A DNA stretch of 64,000 nucleotides from a virus, in IMG/VR virus record IMGVR_UViG_3300028392_000054, positions 1 to 64,000 of that record. The stretch is one strand, 5' to 3'. The notes under the pieces are model-generated. The model saw only the letters and a program-made list of their open reading frames with translations. It was not told where the DNA came from and did no database searches. A program made the translations under genes and the position numbers. Positions 30,977 to 36,036 of this stretch are shown piece after piece (position 1 is the first letter of the stretch; every line of letters begins with the position of its first letter).

Positions 30977-30998
30977 ACCTATAGTTTACCATAAAAAG

Positions 30999-31069
30999 CT
31001 GGTTCTGTAGGAGTCGAACCTACGCCTGCGGTGTTGGAGACCGCCGTGCTACCGTAACACTTAGAACCA
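30999..31069 (-). tRNA. trnW: tRNA-Trp (CCA anticodon); 3' CCA not encoded
   Basis: TGGTTCT/AGAACCA acceptor stem, GCGGT-CTCCAAC-ACCGC anticodon arm, GTAGG-TTCGACT-CCTAC T arm. Confidence 0.92.
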
Positions 31070-32011: not shown

Positions 32012-32032
32012 GTGAATATTTTATCAGTTTAG

Positions 32033-32105
32033 AGCCCCCAACAGGACTTGAACCCGTCACCTACGCATTACAAGTGCGTCGCTCTACCAGATGAGCTATA
32101 GGGGC
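32033..32105 (-). tRNA. trnT: tRNA-Thr (TGT anticodon); 3' CCA not encoded
   Basis: GCCCCTA/TGGGGGC acceptor stem, GCTC/GAGC D arm, ACGCA-CTTGTAA-TGCGT anticodon arm, ACGGG-TTCAAGT-CCTGT T arm. Confidence 0.92.
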
Positions 32106-32149: not shown

Positions 32150-32677
32150 TTACAGTGTTTTTACTATACGGACAAATCGGATTTGCCCGCTTTTGTAATC
32201 TGTAAGCGGTTGAATTATCGTGGCATGAGCTCCACGATGTGCATTAATTATTTTTCCATTTCCAATGTAAATGGCGGCGTGATAGAAGTCTGTGCTGCCA
32301 TTGTAGGCAAACAAGACAATGTCTCCAAGCTTTGGCTTTGAGACTCTAGTTCCAATATGCCCTTGGGCATTTGCCGAGTGCGGTAGTTCTATACCGAATC
32401 GTTCATAGGCCCAGCGTACTAGACCTGAACAGTCCCATCCACGGGGACTGGCACCTGAAAACACATAAGATGTGCGTCCTACGCGAGTTTTCAGATACTT
32501 AACTACATTCCTCATTTGAGCAGTATTGCGGTGTGCTTTAGCTGTCTCAATTAAGGTTAATGGTTTAACTTGGTGTTGCTTTGTTTCTTGTGTAATTTGA
32601 GCTACAGCTGTTGCTGTAGAGGCGGAACAACCAGCAAGTGTTACAAGTATGCTGGCTATAATTACGTACTTTTTCAT
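32150..32677 (-). CDS. NlpC/P60 cell-wall peptidase, lipoprotein-type signal
   Basis: LAGC lipobox; YVFSG...WDCSGLV, GDIVLF, HAAIYIGNGKIINA. Confidence 0.92.
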   Translation of the reverse strand: MKKYVIIASILVTLAGCSASTATAVAQITQETKQHQVKPLTLIETAKAHRNTAQMRNVVKYLKTRVGRTSYVFSGASPRGWDCSGLVRWAYERFGIELPHSANAQGHIGTRVSKPKLGDIVLFAYNGSTDFYHAAIYIGNGKIINAHRGAHATIIQPLTDYKSGQIRFVRIVKTL

Positions 32678-32923: not shown

Positions 32924-33220
32924 ATGAAACTTTTTGGCAATGTAATGTTGCGTGTACTTGCAACATTTGTCGCCTCAGCACTGGGCGTAATCGGTGCGGG
33001 TACAGTCGCCGGCTCTATGAGCGGTATCCAAATTCCTATTTGGTTTAGCGCTGTAATGGGCGGTGTAATGGCCGTAGCTAAAGTAGTTGAACTGCTTGCT
33101 TTGGCTTTCTTAGAAGATGGAAAGCTTACCCTAAATGAAATTAATGCTGCTTTCCAGCAAACCGTATCTTTAAAAAATGTCGAAAATGAAAAGGAAAAAA
33201 CCAATGAAAAAAATGCGTAA
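32924..33220 (+). CDS. Two-TM holin-like membrane protein
   Basis: Two hydrophobic helices followed by DGKLTLNEINAAF. Confidence 0.6.
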   Translation: MKLFGNVMLRVLATFVASALGVIGAGTVAGSMSGIQIPIWFSAVMGGVMAVAKVVELLALAFLEDGKLTLNEINAAFQQTVSLKNVENEKEKTNEKNA

Positions 33221-34670
33221 GTTCTCTACTTTATTTGTAGCCGCAACTTCACTATTTCTTATGTTTGGGTTGTCTAGCCCCGCTATGGCTGATAGCACAA
33301 CTGACTATAACCAAAAAGTTGCTGAGGCACAGGCAAAGGTACAAGACCTTCAGAATCAGTTATCCAACGCACAAGCTAACCTTGATAGTTGGACTAACTC
33401 GTCTAACTCTCAGGCTGACCTTATTAACTCTGCCCAGACTGCCGCTACTGAAGCAAAAGATGCTTTAGAGGCTGCTGTGTCCGATTACAACAGTAAAAAG
33501 TCTGACTATGATGTGGCTTTTGCTGATGTTCAGGCTGCTGAAGTAGTAGTCGCTCAGGCAGTGGCCGCAGTAAATGCTGCTGCTGATGTAGTGGACTCTA
33601 CCTATAATTCTTACGCAGTAACCCAGCAGAACGCTGATAACGCTCAGGCTGTTATGAATCAAGCACAAAATGATTATGACACCAAGTTAATTACCGAGGG
33701 TGGTAGCGTTAAAAATGCCGCTGGTTTGGTTGTTGATGTTTACACAGGCATTAACCGTTACGGAAACCCTCCACAAAAATCAGACACTGCTTACACCAAA
33801 TGTAAGACAACTACTGTAGCCAACATTGACGCCAACTGGGGTGGCGGTGACATTCTAGGTTGTGGTTCTGATTACATCATGCTTCACTACAAGGGTTACA
33901 TTACCTACCCAACAACAACTAAAGTTTACTTCCAGGCCCCTGCTGATGATGGTTTCTATATGCAAATTGGCGGAACTCAGGTAATCAACGACTGGTCGCT
34001 AAAAGGCTGTGGAGCAAACTCTACAGGCATGTTCTCCTTTACAGGTGGAAAGTCTTACGCTATTGACGCTTGGTTCTATGAGTGGGGTGGCGGTGCTTGT
34101 TCTAGTTTAAACTACAAACCTCTAGGCGGTAGTTCTTATGCAGTAGCCCCAGCGTCATTCTTCACACAGGGCGCAGTAGCCAACTTGGTTAAAAACCCAG
34201 CACTGCTTGCTGTACTAAACGCTAAGACCGCTCTTTATGTTCAGGCAGTAGCCGCTGAAGAGCAGGCAAATGTGGTTTACAGCAATGCTTGTGATGATTA
34301 TGACGGCAAACAAGCAGCCTATGGATACGCTGGAAGTTCGTTAGCAAATAAGCACACTATTTTAGTTCCACTAGAGTACGTCATGAGTAACGCCGAATCT
34401 AACTGGCAAAACAGAAGTGATGACAAAGTAGTCGCTGATGCCAACTTGCGTGACCTAAAAGCCGAGTACAGTAGCACATTTGCTGCTATTGAGTCTGCGG
34501 TACAACAGGTAGACGACCTAGAAGCCAAAGTTGTTCAAGCAAAAGTAGACCTAGCAAACATTCCAAAGCCTACTGCTGCTGATAAGCGTAAACCAAAAAA
34601 GAATAACCCAAAGTATTTTGCTGATGGTGCGTACCTTCCTAGGCAAGCGTTTGTAATCAATTTAAAATAA
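33204..34670 (+). CDS. Secreted coiled-coil protein with central PA14 domain
   Basis: Signal peptide ending PAMA/D; IDANWGGG, YKGYI, ADDGF, DAWFYEWGGGA (PA14); start at MKKMR after AAGGA. Confidence 0.85.
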   Translation: MKKMRKFSTLFVAATSLFLMFGLSSPAMADSTTDYNQKVAEAQAKVQDLQNQLSNAQANLDSWTNSSNSQADLINSAQTAATEAKDALEAAVSDYNSKKSDYDVAFADVQAAEVVVAQAVAAVNAAADVVDSTYNSYAVTQQNADNAQAVMNQAQNDYDTKLITEGGSVKNAAGLVVDVYTGINRYGNPPQKSDTAYTKCKTTTVANIDANWGGGDILGCGSDYIMLHYKGYITYPTTTKVYFQAPADDGFYMQIGGTQVINDWSLKGCGANSTGMFSFTGGKSYAIDAWFYEWGGGACSSLNYKPLGGSSYAVAPASFFTQGAVANLVKNPALLAVLNAKTALYVQAVAAEEQANVVYSNACDDYDGKQAAYGYAGSSLANKHTILVPLEYVMSNAESNWQNRSDDKVVADANLRDLKAEYSSTFAAIESAVQQVDDLEAKVVQAKVDLANIPKPTAADKRKPKKNNPKYFADGAYLPRQAFVINLK

Positions 34671-34727
34671 TACCCCCAAAGGAATTTAACAACAATAATC
34701 CAGTTGCAGATATTCCATTGTTGGGGG
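34661..34727 (+). other. Candidate -1 programmed ribosomal frameshift signal
   Basis: T_TTA_AAA heptamer 34661-34667 immediately before TAA; 5-nt spacer; stem CCCCCAA/TTGGGGG plus GGAAT/ATTCC. Confidence 0.75.
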
Positions 34728-34936
34728 CAGCATTTCAAGGATTAGCTGATGCGTTTAACGCTTTAGGCAACATTGGTGCAGATTTACCTCCTGCTGTGCG
34801 AGCAAAAGCACAGAAAGTGGTTATTTCGGCCATTATTGTTACACAAGTAGCAACACAAGCTGCATCTATGGCTGCTCAAAGCGCAGCAAGTGCAGCATCA
34901 AGTTCATCAAGTTCTAGCCGAAGGAAAGAAAAATGA
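34661..34936 (+). CDS. -1 frame extension of the PA14 protein with hydrophobic anchor and basic tail
   Basis: Frame open from the slippery site: KIIPPKEFNNNNPVADIPLLGAAF...VVISAIIVTQVATQAASMAA...RRKEK. Confidence 0.7.
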   Translation, partial: FKIIPPKEFNNNNPVADIPLLGAAFQGLADAFNALGNIGADLPPAVRAKAQKVVISAIIVTQVATQAASMAAQSAASAASSSSSSSRRKEK

Positions 34937-35097
34937 AGTTTTTAAATGACCTTATAGGCCAAATATGGACTCTTTTAGGTATGTTTGTAGCCTGGGTTGT
35001 ACTAGAAGGCTCTGCTAAGGCGGTAGTTGGCTGGTGCATCATAGGTTCATTGGTTATATGGATAGCCACGTTCCCCCTGCGAAATAGAGACGAATAA
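34933..35097 (+). CDS. 54-aa two-TM protein (not in ORF track)
   Basis: MKFLNDLIGQIWTLLGMFVAWVVLEGSAKAVVGWCII; ATGA overlap, AAGGA SD. Confidence 0.75.
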   Translation: MKFLNDLIGQIWTLLGMFVAWVVLEGSAKAVVGWCIIGSLVIWIATFPLRNRDE

Positions 35098-35143: not shown

Positions 35144-35668
35144 ATGGGTAACTGGATTTTCCCGGTAAAGAAGGTCAAACTCGGATCACTATTTGGCGCA
35201 GTAGACCAGTGGCACAAAGCTCCAGGTCATCGTGGAACCGATTATAACGGTTTCCCTGTTGGCGAGCCTTTGCTTGCTGTAAATGATGGAACAATCGTAC
35301 TTAATAGACCTTTAGCAAAAAGCACCGTTCTTGGTAACGTTGTTGTACTACAGACAGATAACGGCCACTACTTCGGTTACTGCCACATGAATGAACCATC
35401 ACCACTTAAGGTTGGAACAGTCGTGAAGTCAGGCGACGTAGTTGGTAAAGCAGGTAACACAGGCTCAGCGAGTTTTGGTTGTCACCTACACTTCACACTA
35501 AGCGGTTCTGCTGAAGGTGTGTTTGGTGGCAAAGTTTACAACGCTCACGAGTACATTAAAGGCCAAATTGCAAAGCAAAAAGCTGTTAAGCCAGTTGCTA
35601 AGCCAGTGGCTGCCCCGGTCCATGCAGACCCAAAGGTTTGCCCAACTTGTAAGCAAGAGGTTAAATAA
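35144..35668 (+). CDS. M23 family peptidase (candidate endolysin)
   Basis: HRGTD, YCHM, GNTG.S.GCHLHF. Confidence 0.9.
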   Translation: MGNWIFPVKKVKLGSLFGAVDQWHKAPGHRGTDYNGFPVGEPLLAVNDGTIVLNRPLAKSTVLGNVVVLQTDNGHYFGYCHMNEPSPLKVGTVVKSGDVVGKAGNTGSASFGCHLHFTLSGSAEGVFGGKVYNAHEYIKGQIAKQKAVKPVAKPVAAPVHADPKVCPTCKQEVK

Positions 35669-36036
35669 TGAAAGCACTTGGTAATTTAATTAAGCGCACT
35701 ATTGGTGTGGTTATGTTTGCTGCAATCCCAGGTATGGCTACTGGTGCTGCATCAGGCATTGGTCCACTACTTGGTGCTTTAAATGGTGTTGCTACTGTAT
35801 TCTCATCAATCATCATTTACTTTGGTGTTCAACTAGCTTGGGATGCAAGTATTTCAAACGAAGACATTGAAAAAGGTTTCCGTGCTGCTGTTGCAAAACA
35901 ATCAGCAAATGACCCTGAAGTTAAACAAGCACTAGAAGAATCAGCTGCTGAAACTCCAGAACTTGCTGACTTTGGTGACCTGACAGAACTAACAGACCAT
36001 GTAGATGCCCCTGAAGAAGAAGAGCCATTGGCTTAA
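35668..36036 (+). CDS. Two-TM holin-like membrane protein
   Basis: Coupled to M23 gene; TM segments followed by DASISNEDIEKGF and an acidic tail. Confidence 0.6.
   Translation: MKALGNLIKRTIGVVMFAAIPGMATGAASGIGPLLGALNGVATVFSSIIIYFGVQLAWDASISNEDIEKGFRAAVAKQSANDPEVKQALEESAAETPELADFGDLTELTDHVDAPEEEEPLA

Follow-up and report, generated by a model that had tools for sequence, protein, structure and literature searches.

The 64,000-nucleotide stretch of viral DNA analyzed here (positions 1 to 64,000 of the IMG/VR virus record IMGVR_UViG_3300028392_000054; hereafter, the window) encodes, at positions 33204–34936, a PA14-domain protein with a predicted signal peptide and, displaced by -1, a second open reading frame (ORF) that continues past the stop codon of the first. 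The upstream ORF starts at ATG 33204, with a second in-frame ATG further upstream at 33177, and closes with AAT TTA AAA TAA, the TAA being 34668–70. From comparison of related loci, we consider it very probable that the two frames are joined by a conserved programmed -1 ribosomal frameshift (PRF). The elements of the site are as follows.

33204..34670 (stop included), plus strand: 0-frame gene; short form of 488 amino acids (aa) with signal peptide, helix, PA14 domain, helix, and basic disordered tail (202 homologs, AlphaFold2 [AF2], Foldseek)
34661..34667, plus strand: slippery heptamer T_TTA_AAA, in the 0-frame register X_XXY_YYZ
34668..34670, plus strand: 0-frame stop TAA, immediately 3' of the heptamer
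34667..34936, plus strand: -1 frame extension that would be translated after the slip, 89 codons plus TGA; predicted long form of 577 aa
34673..34727, plus strand: predicted stem-loop 5 nucleotides (nt) past the heptamer; outer arms CCCCCAA 34673–79 and TTGGGGG 34721–27, inner arms GGAAT 34681–85 and ATTCC 34712–16 (RNAfold)

The -1 frame is open from stop to stop only between 34643 and 34936, so the 0 and -1 frames share just 28 nt, heptamer included. The +1 frame and 0-frame readthrough are each blocked by a stop within ~25 codons. Among the 94 stop-to-stop ORFs of at least 100 codons in the window, two have an X_XXY_YYZ heptamer in frame, with 0 or 3 nt between it and the stop, and only the ORF described here is also followed by a -1 frame open for at least 70 codons. 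A preliminary description, made from the letters of the window, had placed the heptamer, the stop, the stem arms, and the frames, and all of these coordinates proved correct when the sequence was re-checked. Two further shift-prone heptamers lie in frame ~60 nt upstream, within the basic tail (A_AAA_AAG at 34595 and C_CCA_AAG at 34607; region 34595–34613). A slip at either would yield a truncated protein because the -1 frame is closed there and opens only at 34643.

A search of 5.8 billion proteins, in which lengths up to 854 aa were eligible, returned 202 homologs of the short form. The 120 listed were 45–93% identical and 312–522 aa long (mostly 481–502), and none exceeded 522 aa. All 21 aligned homologs finished with ...[LP]K, or with ...PK and one residue, and the Lys was invariant. 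Since homologs keep the same stop position, an indel private to the window is excluded. We also compared the window with 80 viral and 80 metagenome loci, placing the PA14 part and the -1 peptide by hidden Markov models (HMMs). The conserved C-terminal module that the extension encodes lay in the -1 frame in 90 loci, in the same ORF as PA14 (fused) in 35, and in the +1 frame in one; it was not found in 35, about half of which are cut by a contig end. In other locus sets, eight loci with a PA14 frame running off the contig were dropped from one, and three duplicates by identical sequence from another.

Deduplication by identical sequence reduced the split loci from 91 to 69, of which 68 were in the -1 frame, and an in-frame X_XXY_YYZ heptamer was present in 68 of these 68. 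C_CCA_AAA followed by TAA accounted for 33 loci and T_TTA_AAA followed by TAA for 22, with A_AAA_AAA and A_AAA_AAG found once each (the A_AAA_AAG locus carries C_CCA_AAA too). In the remaining 11, C_CCA_AAA was followed by one codon and then by TAA (6) or TGA (5). The distance from heptamer to stop was 0 nt in 57/68 loci and 3 nt in 11/68. The arrangement of heptamer, stop, stem, and -1 ORF first noticed in the window was kept in all 68 unique -1 loci.

The third base of the codon ahead of the heptamer was X in every one of the 68 loci, while the encoded residue varied. The C-class heptamers were preceded by AGC, GAC, CTC, ATC, GTC, AAC, ACC, CGC, or GCC (S, D, L, I, V, N, T, R, A) and the T-class heptamers by AAT, GAT, AGT, TAT, or GTT (N, D, S, Y, V). 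A variable residue with the wobble base fixed to X points to selection on the nucleotides, not on the protein. The overlap between the frames was as small as 10 nt, heptamer and stop, in 19/69 split loci; there, a -1 frame stop lies immediately 5' of the heptamer, so only those 10 nt are left for the change of frame. In a tree of the PA14 region (quick method, midpoint root; rows with <150 HMM positions matched and identical proteins were left out), the split forms clustered beside the fused clade. C_CCA_AAA was basal and T_TTA_AAA occurred in at least two separate, well-supported places, so the heptamer has been replaced while remaining a heptamer.

Folding of the window's RNA by RNAfold yielded exactly the two-tier hairpin of the preliminary description, its arms pairing at the same coordinates (-17.7 kcal/mol, z score -2.26; 4/200 shuffles were as good). 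When the 68 nt past the heptamer were folded sequence by sequence in 47 split loci, the mean z score was -2.39 and 34/47 fell below -1.5. A hairpin was predicted in nearly all split loci, starting mostly 5–7 nt 3' of the heptamer. We observed a mean z score of -2.73 for the homologous 68-nt stretch, anchored on the IPxLG motif of the module, in 58 split loci, compared with -0.15 in 21 fused loci (duplicates removed by identical segment; Mann-Whitney p 2e-11, for rows that are related and not phylogenetically independent). The predicted excess folding is thus specific to the frameshift clade. The 3' arm consists of the Leu-Gly codons of IPxLG; the 5' arm is located in a variable linker and varies as that linker does (CCCCCAA, CCCCCA, CCCAAC, CCCAGC, and a longer re-matched arm in locus L052). 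In the pair L045 and L046, one of a few instances of compensatory change along with the L052 arm, CCCAGC:GCTGGG stands against CCCAAC:GTTGGG, with both changes synonymous in the -1 frame. Rfam gave two chance-level minus-strand matches only, far under gathering scores. In a promoter scan, promoter-like sites were no more frequent than in shuffles; a terminator scan gave 7 terminator-like sites versus 3.4 (standard deviation 1.9) in shuffles, none of them convincing between the two ORFs.

The extension is constrained as coding sequence from the stop onward. Column entropy by -1 codon position was 0.73/0.53/1.19 overall and 0.87/0.69/1.25 in the stretch from the stop to IPxLG, third positions being the most variable. 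The first ATG, GTG, or TTG in the -1 frame of the window is TTG 34718, and the 18 nt 5' of it hold no GGAGG- or AGGA-like motif. Among 49 loci, the first -1 start codon wandered from codon 3 to codon 49 and was not conserved, many relatives reading GGA CTG GGG where the window reads TTG TTG GGG, and the peptide KIIPPKEF..NP...IP.LGA was conserved 5' of these start codons. The -1 ORF had been described as having no start led by a Shine-Dalgarno sequence, which we confirmed; TTG 34718 itself is lacking in many relatives.

The 35 fused loci, whose PA14 regions are 29–45% identical, each consist of one ORF of 378–1115 aa as measured from the preceding stop. They carry the same module: IPxLG and an amphipathic segment come first, followed by G-N-x-G-x-D-[LMI]-[SP]-P, a basic segment, a hydrophobic helix in which a Gln is conserved, a run of Ala/Ser/Gly, and RRK. 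Their C-termini (...IPxLG...GNxGxDMSPxxRxxxKxVV...Q.A...RRK) align with the -1 peptide. On this alignment, we take the in-frame fusion to be ancestral and the extension to be the old C-terminus. A profile search with the module against 1.84 billion entries returned 729 cluster representatives, 322 of them at E 1e-10 or better. Among the 150 matches listed, the module was at the extreme C-terminus in nearly all, in proteins of ~70 to 1213 aa; some of the shortest matches were split ORFs called alone. The best match, P0121, a repetitive abalone protein, was set aside as low-complexity. A domain scan of 76 module-bearing proteins found PA14 in 30, fn3 in 6, and a SUEL rhamnose/galactose-lectin domain in 5, and the passengers often sit behind PEPEP-type linkers and a conserved helical segment (LTxxQ...GSPEYxxALxAL..AAQxDDI).

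Two elements of the module bear on its possible function.

34817..34873, plus strand: hydrophobic helix VVISAIIVTQVATQAASMA, putative membrane anchor (Kyte-Doolittle hydropathy, AF2)
34919..34933, plus strand: basic tail RRKEK (...SSSRRKEK), whose codons double as an AAGGA Shine-Dalgarno-like motif for the next gene

The AF2 model of the -1 peptide showed a helix, an LPP break, and a long helix at residues 45–81. In 48 relatives, the Kyte-Doolittle value of the hydrophobic window was 1.63–2.18 (mean 1.73). The hydrophobic helix followed by RRKEK that had been reported for the -1 frame is present, with borderline hydrophobicity, and we infer that the module is a stop-transfer anchor. A sortase- or exosortase-type sorting signal was considered and rejected: despite the transmembrane (TM) helix and RRK tail, no LPXTG or PEP motif stands directly before the helix. 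The conserved motif G-A-D-[LM]-[PS]-P is parted from the helix by a basic stretch, and no sorting-signal model of NCBIfam or Pfam matched. A search of the ESM Atlas with the -1 peptide gave no usable match.

The short form encoded upstream of the heptamer divides into the following parts.

33204..33290, plus strand: predicted Sec signal peptide, residues 1–29 (MKKMRK, hydrophobic core, AMA|D), judged by eye
33297..33683, plus strand: long helix 1 of the predicted stalk, residues 32–160 (AF2; predicted local distance difference test [pLDDT] mostly 75–95)
33690..34190, plus strand: PA14-fold beta domain, residues 163–329, with invariant ADDGF, NDWSLKGC, and DAWxYEWGGGAC motifs (AF2, Foldseek, alignment)
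34197..34556, plus strand: long helix 2 of the predicted stalk, residues 332–451 (AF2)

The hydropathy of the signal peptide peaks at residue 10, and SSPAxA-DS is conserved in the family alignment (A1). The AF2 model, built from 86 sequences, had a pLDDT of 81 overall, with a disordered N-terminus and basic C-terminal tail, and >90 over most of residues 163–329. Pfam PA14 (PF07691) scored the window protein at 22.8 bits, under the gathering cut-off of 24, and relatives exceed that cut-off at 24.2–41.6 bits. Foldseek matched the beta domain to the solved PA14 domains 6qe7, 6x7x, 6m8m, and 4cou (E 3e-10 to 5e-8). The assignment to PA14 made in the preliminary description, sub-threshold by Pfam, is thus confirmed by the predicted fold. 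Were the two helices to pack as a hairpin, ~19 nm (129 residues × 0.15 nm) would separate the PA14 domain from both termini. In a phage collection, the only tblastn match was to a 93-aa stretch of PA14 in Pelagibacter phage HTVC008M, and megablast of the region gave zero matches.

We propose that most ribosomes terminate at TAA 34668 and release the 488-aa precursor. This short form, with its signal peptide, ~130-residue helix, PA14 lectin-like domain, ~120-residue helix, and basic tail, would be anchorless once exported. Some ribosomes would pause on T_TTA_AAA with the hairpin 5 nt ahead, their P- and A-site tRNAs would shift back one base, and 89 more codons would be translated. The extension would begin with a short linker and an amphipathic helix, pass through an LPP kink into a hydrophobic helix, and close with the RRKEK tail, and the 577-aa long form would be tethered in the cytoplasmic membrane with its stalk facing outward. 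The shift would in this way fix the ratio of free to anchored lectin stalk. Such a -1 PRF, toggling an exported PA14/coiled-coil protein without versus with a C-terminal anchor, was the core of the preliminary description; the comparison supports it and adds the in-frame fused homologs. On sequence grounds, we regard the proposed free/anchored reading as well founded; cleavage of the signal peptide, insertion into the membrane, binding of sugars, the free-to-anchored ratio, and the function of the protein are its inferred parts.

No net indel is seen at the heptamer, stop, or stem in contigs of related strains that span these elements; the contigs come from three DNA studies and one metatranscriptome library. 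They differ by substitutions, and by a 1-nt loss and a 1-nt gain that lie 3 nt apart, 5' of the heptamer. The check rests on contigs, which drop rare variants. A sequencing indel had been named as something that could overturn the frameshift, and none is seen in these independent assemblies. One lake metatranscriptome contig of a related strain (run X11), corresponding to window 34518–34676, spans the 3' end of the PA14 gene together with the heptamer and stop; it is a weak hint of transcription of the gene, with DNA carry-over possible.

Comparison of the loci reveals a slip site, no other entry into the -1 frame, coding constraint on the extension, homology of the module, and clade-specific predicted RNA structure, and four other explanations can be weighed against these. 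An error of sequencing or assembly, or a decaying pseudogene, would make the locus really one ORF or a broken gene. A related contig, L097, does differ by one base in a C run; however, the same split recurs in 68 unique loci from many samples at 45–93% protein identity, the stop position is invariant, both parts are strongly constrained, and the contigs of three DNA studies cross the site unchanged, so that this explanation is next to impossible. Alternatively, the downstream ORF could be a separate gene with its own start, at TTG 34718 or similar, encoding a small tail-anchored peptide that has no link to the PA14 protein. Many close relatives have a TTG or GTG near codon 19–20, and public gene callers have annotated proteins of 69–130 aa with a match to the module, among them P0122 (82 aa). 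Yet the first start codon falls anywhere between codons 3 and 49, the TTG site is lost in many loci (GGA CTG GGG), and no Shine-Dalgarno-like motif precedes TTG 34718. Peptide and codon periodicity are conserved right from the stop, 5' of any start, and initiation at 34718 would cut the IPxLG motif, which is part of the module in the fused homologs. The heptamer and the fixed wobble base would also be left unexplained, and we judge a separate gene very unlikely.

Two further possibilities concern transcription and reinitiation. In transcriptional slippage, RNA polymerase would insert one A in the AAAA run (34664–67), giving an identical long form. Known bacterial transcriptional slippage sites need a run of ~7 or more, and the run here is only 4 A long. 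Neither the XXX triplet before AAAA, with its fixed preceding wobble base, nor the clade-specific hairpin at 5 nt is explained by slippage, and the single RNA-library contig over the site has no extra A (a weak point, as contigs drop rare variants). The soluble and transmembrane glycoproteins of Ebola virus do arise by such recoding (PMC5009743, the review by Atkins et al., cited throughout from excerpts of its text); here, we rate transcriptional slippage as less probable still than a separate gene. Termination at TAA followed by reinitiation in the -1 frame on a non-canonical ATA or ATT, yielding a separate 89-aa peptide, is about as improbable as slippage. Just a few bases separate the stop from the beginning of the conserved -1 peptide, and the hairpin could keep the ribosome in place. 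However, no initiation codon is conserved beside the stop (relatives read ATA ATA, ATA ATT, ACA GTA, ATC ATA, or ACG GTA), the heptamer pattern is unexplained, and in the fused homologs the module works as a covalent C-terminus.

Several observations count against a frameshift that adds a membrane anchor. In a covariation test of the described stem in fixed register, paired cells amounted to 80.9% versus 81.0% in shuffles, which is not significant, with double changes at 2 pairs. The RNAalifold consensus was just 4 bp because near and distant groups use different registers, and both hairpin arms also code for conserved residues. In the metagenome contig L097 (2940–2960), the module lies in the +1 frame after the same heptamer and stop; its C run after the stop is one base shorter than in its relatives (4 instead of 5–7), through either natural mutation or an assembly error in the homopolymer. 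As for the anchor, the best 19-residue Kyte-Doolittle window of VVISAIIVTQVATQAASMA reached 1.64, barely over the usual mark of 1.6, and the AF2 model of the -1 peptide alone had a pLDDT of 56, a low confidence, so it was used for secondary structure only. Finally, the efficiency of the frameshift could be low. In E. coli, A_AAA_AAA reportedly shifts far less readily than A_AAA_AAG (PMC5009743), and the A-site codon here is AAA. In favor of a frameshift, heptamers of the C_CCA_AAG type are described as highly shift-prone in the same bacterium (PMC5009743).

The genes around the frameshift site include the following.

32924..33220, plus strand: 98-aa holin-like neighbor with two TM segments (2-TM)
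34933..35097, plus strand: gene for a 54-aa 2-TM protein; its ATG overlaps the stop of the -1 ORF (ATGA)
35144..35668, plus strand: M23 peptidase without signal peptide, putative endolysin

The order of these genes is conserved among the loci. The 54-aa 2-TM protein (QxWTLLGMFVAWxVLEGSAK...) is encoded by one of the most conserved genes of this neighborhood, found 3' of the module in 84/90 split and 29/35 fused loci. Its start overlaps the -1 ORF stop, as ATGA or TAATG, in 59/64 unique split loci (duplicates removed by identical segment), suggesting translational coupling to frameshifted ribosomes. Flanks were short for the other two genes: the 98-aa protein was present in 73 split and 14 fused loci and the M23 peptidase in 64 split and 3 fused loci. 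A complex prediction for the -1 peptide with the 54-aa protein scored 0.00 against a mark of 0.32, without controls, and speaks neither for nor against binding. The frameshifted gene and these neighbors form a putative lysis cassette. In Microbacterium phages, such cassettes typically contain an endolysin and membrane proteins, and a lectin stalk is not among the components given in the excerpted text of PMC7302621.

The PHROG label "nuclease" for the 98-aa protein misfits a 2-TM protein, and we do not believe it. The membrane proteins bracketing the cassette, at 32924–33220 and 35668–36036 (122 aa), share a weak N-terminal likeness, and a BLASTP E of 0.048 is too weak to make them paralogs. 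Neither the -1 peptide nor the 54-aa and 122-aa proteins had a match in Pfam, NCBIfam, or PHROGs. Divergent from the cassette, at 32150–32677 on the minus strand, lies an NlpC/P60 endopeptidase gene with a lipoprotein signal (LAGC lipobox; Pfam LPAM_1), whose predicted product is an exported, lipid-anchored wall hydrolase in a phage. Just 5' of the cassette, tRNA-Trp(CCA) at 30998–31069 and tRNA-Thr(TGT) at 32032–32105 (minus strand) flank an hsp20 gene; these two tRNA genes of the window have no bearing on the slip codons.

The window, part of an 81.7-kb record, encodes a tail sheath, baseplate proteins, Pol A, and NrdJ, with the tail genes at ~43–60 kb. Its baseplate J is nearest to those of Streptomyces phages (36–37% identity). 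Among 185,579 species genomes, five relatives of the PA14 domain were found, all in large surface proteins of metagenome-assembled genomes of Microbacteriaceae/Micrococcales (43–56% identical). From the baseplate J kinship and these five relatives, the host is probably an actinobacterium of the Microbacteriaceae, and hence monoderm. The five surface proteins (L162–L166) exceed 1200 aa and carry the PA14 domain N-terminally, which hints that the domain has been exchanged between host and phage. We regard the phages as an abundant family of uncultured freshwater actinophages.

Lactobacillus phage A2 uses C_CCA_AAA with a downstream stem-loop, and the same heptamer is the commonest in the present family. 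As in the family described here, a late -1 shift adds a C-terminal module to some copies of a protein in T3/T7 gene 10, in A2, and in the Listeria phages A118 and A500 (PMC5009743). Those capsid and tail extensions are immunoglobulin-like decorations on virion proteins, whereas the protein studied here has a predicted signal peptide and gains a hydrophobic helix with a basic tail. The phage frameshifts listed in two publications affect tail chaperones, extensions of capsid and tail proteins, and a small number of enzymes (PMC5009743; PMC10885494, the PRFect paper, likewise cited from excerpts). The tail chaperone of the lambda G/GT type also relies on a -1 slip on X_XXY_YYZ near the end of the upstream ORF, with a fixed ratio of short to extended product, and was recognized because it is conserved across phages (PMC10885494; heptamers G_GGA_AAG and others, PMC5009743). 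G/GT is, however, a cytoplasmic chaperone with a tail-binding extension, encoded between the major tail and tape-measure genes, whereas here the product is predicted to be exported, the extension would be an anchor, and the gene sits among holin-like, 2-TM, and M23 genes rather than in the position of a tail chaperone. A literature search, covering freely readable main texts, turned up neither a frameshift in a phage gene for a PA14 or lectin protein nor a phage frameshift that adds an anchor.

Outside phages, E. coli dnaX (tau/gamma) and copA/CopA(Z) use a -1 PRF with a downstream structure to make two products of differing domain content, dnaX on A_AAA_AAG, and copA yields a soluble product beside a membrane protein, akin to the present case (PMC5009743). 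The shifted frame of dnaX and copA closes nearly immediately and the product is truncated, whereas here the shift would extend the protein and add a membrane segment. The copA heptamer is C_CCA_AAG. In terms of outcome, the nearest match would be Ebola GP (sGP versus transmembrane GP) and arterivirus nsp2TF, in which recoding sets soluble versus anchored forms of a glycan-related viral surface protein or swaps the TM region (PMC5009743). These belong to eukaryotic viruses and are unrelated proteins, and Ebola relies on transcriptional, not ribosomal, slippage.

The predicted domain has the same fold as the PA14 domains of adhesins and sensors (RsgI anti-sigma factors, Epa/Flo adhesins, and a Marinomonas ice-binding adhesin; Foldseek E 3e-10 to 1e-8, TM-score on target up to 0.71) and shares the DD(G) motif of PA14 lectins, ADDGF being invariant here. 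Unlike in those proteins, the PA14 domain tips a predicted two-helix stalk of a phage protein, and sugar binding is putative. The predicted long form also resembles unimolecular spanins of the T1 gp11 type and Rz-like i-spanins. T1 gp11 has an N-terminal export signal, a helical body of periplasm length, and a C-terminal TM segment, and is encoded by a lysis-cassette gene. The N-terminus matched the PHROG "Rz-like spanin" weakly (E 0.0013), over the TM-plus-coiled-coil part only. In contrast to spanins, residues 1–40 contain no Cys at all for a lipobox, and the probable host lacks an outer membrane. The spanin-like role in lysis proposed in the preliminary description is therefore disfavored, given a host that is probably a monoderm actinobacterium. 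Receptor masking and adhesion, offered there as well, are conjectural, as is any link to lysis. Our best guess is that the protein binds cell-wall glycopolymers of the host, a role tied to the neighboring lysis genes or to receptor masking.

We also entertain, as a doubtful possibility, that the frameshift is the control point of a small membrane machine, with shifted ribosomes delivering coupled translation of the 2-TM partner. Unshifted ribosomes would stop ~260 nt upstream of the 2-TM gene start, so the anchor and its 2-TM partner would be made one-to-one at the slip rate, with unanchored lectin in excess. If true, this coupling, together with the holin-like and M23 genes, would give actinobacterial phages a new kind of device, adjusted by recoding, for wall sensing, lysis timing, or receptor masking.

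The family would offer a clean case for teaching and for training frameshift predictors, with interchangeable heptamers that share a fixed wobble base, overlaps down to 10 nt, an ancestral in-frame version, and a predicted stimulatory hairpin only where the frame is split. It defines a widespread, putative C-terminal anchor module that has no database annotation, along with a conserved 2-TM partner, in uncultured freshwater actinophages. Overall, a -1 PRF at this site would add a third class beside tail chaperones and capsid/tail decorations: an exported lectin-tipped stalk whose optional anchor is dosed by recoding.

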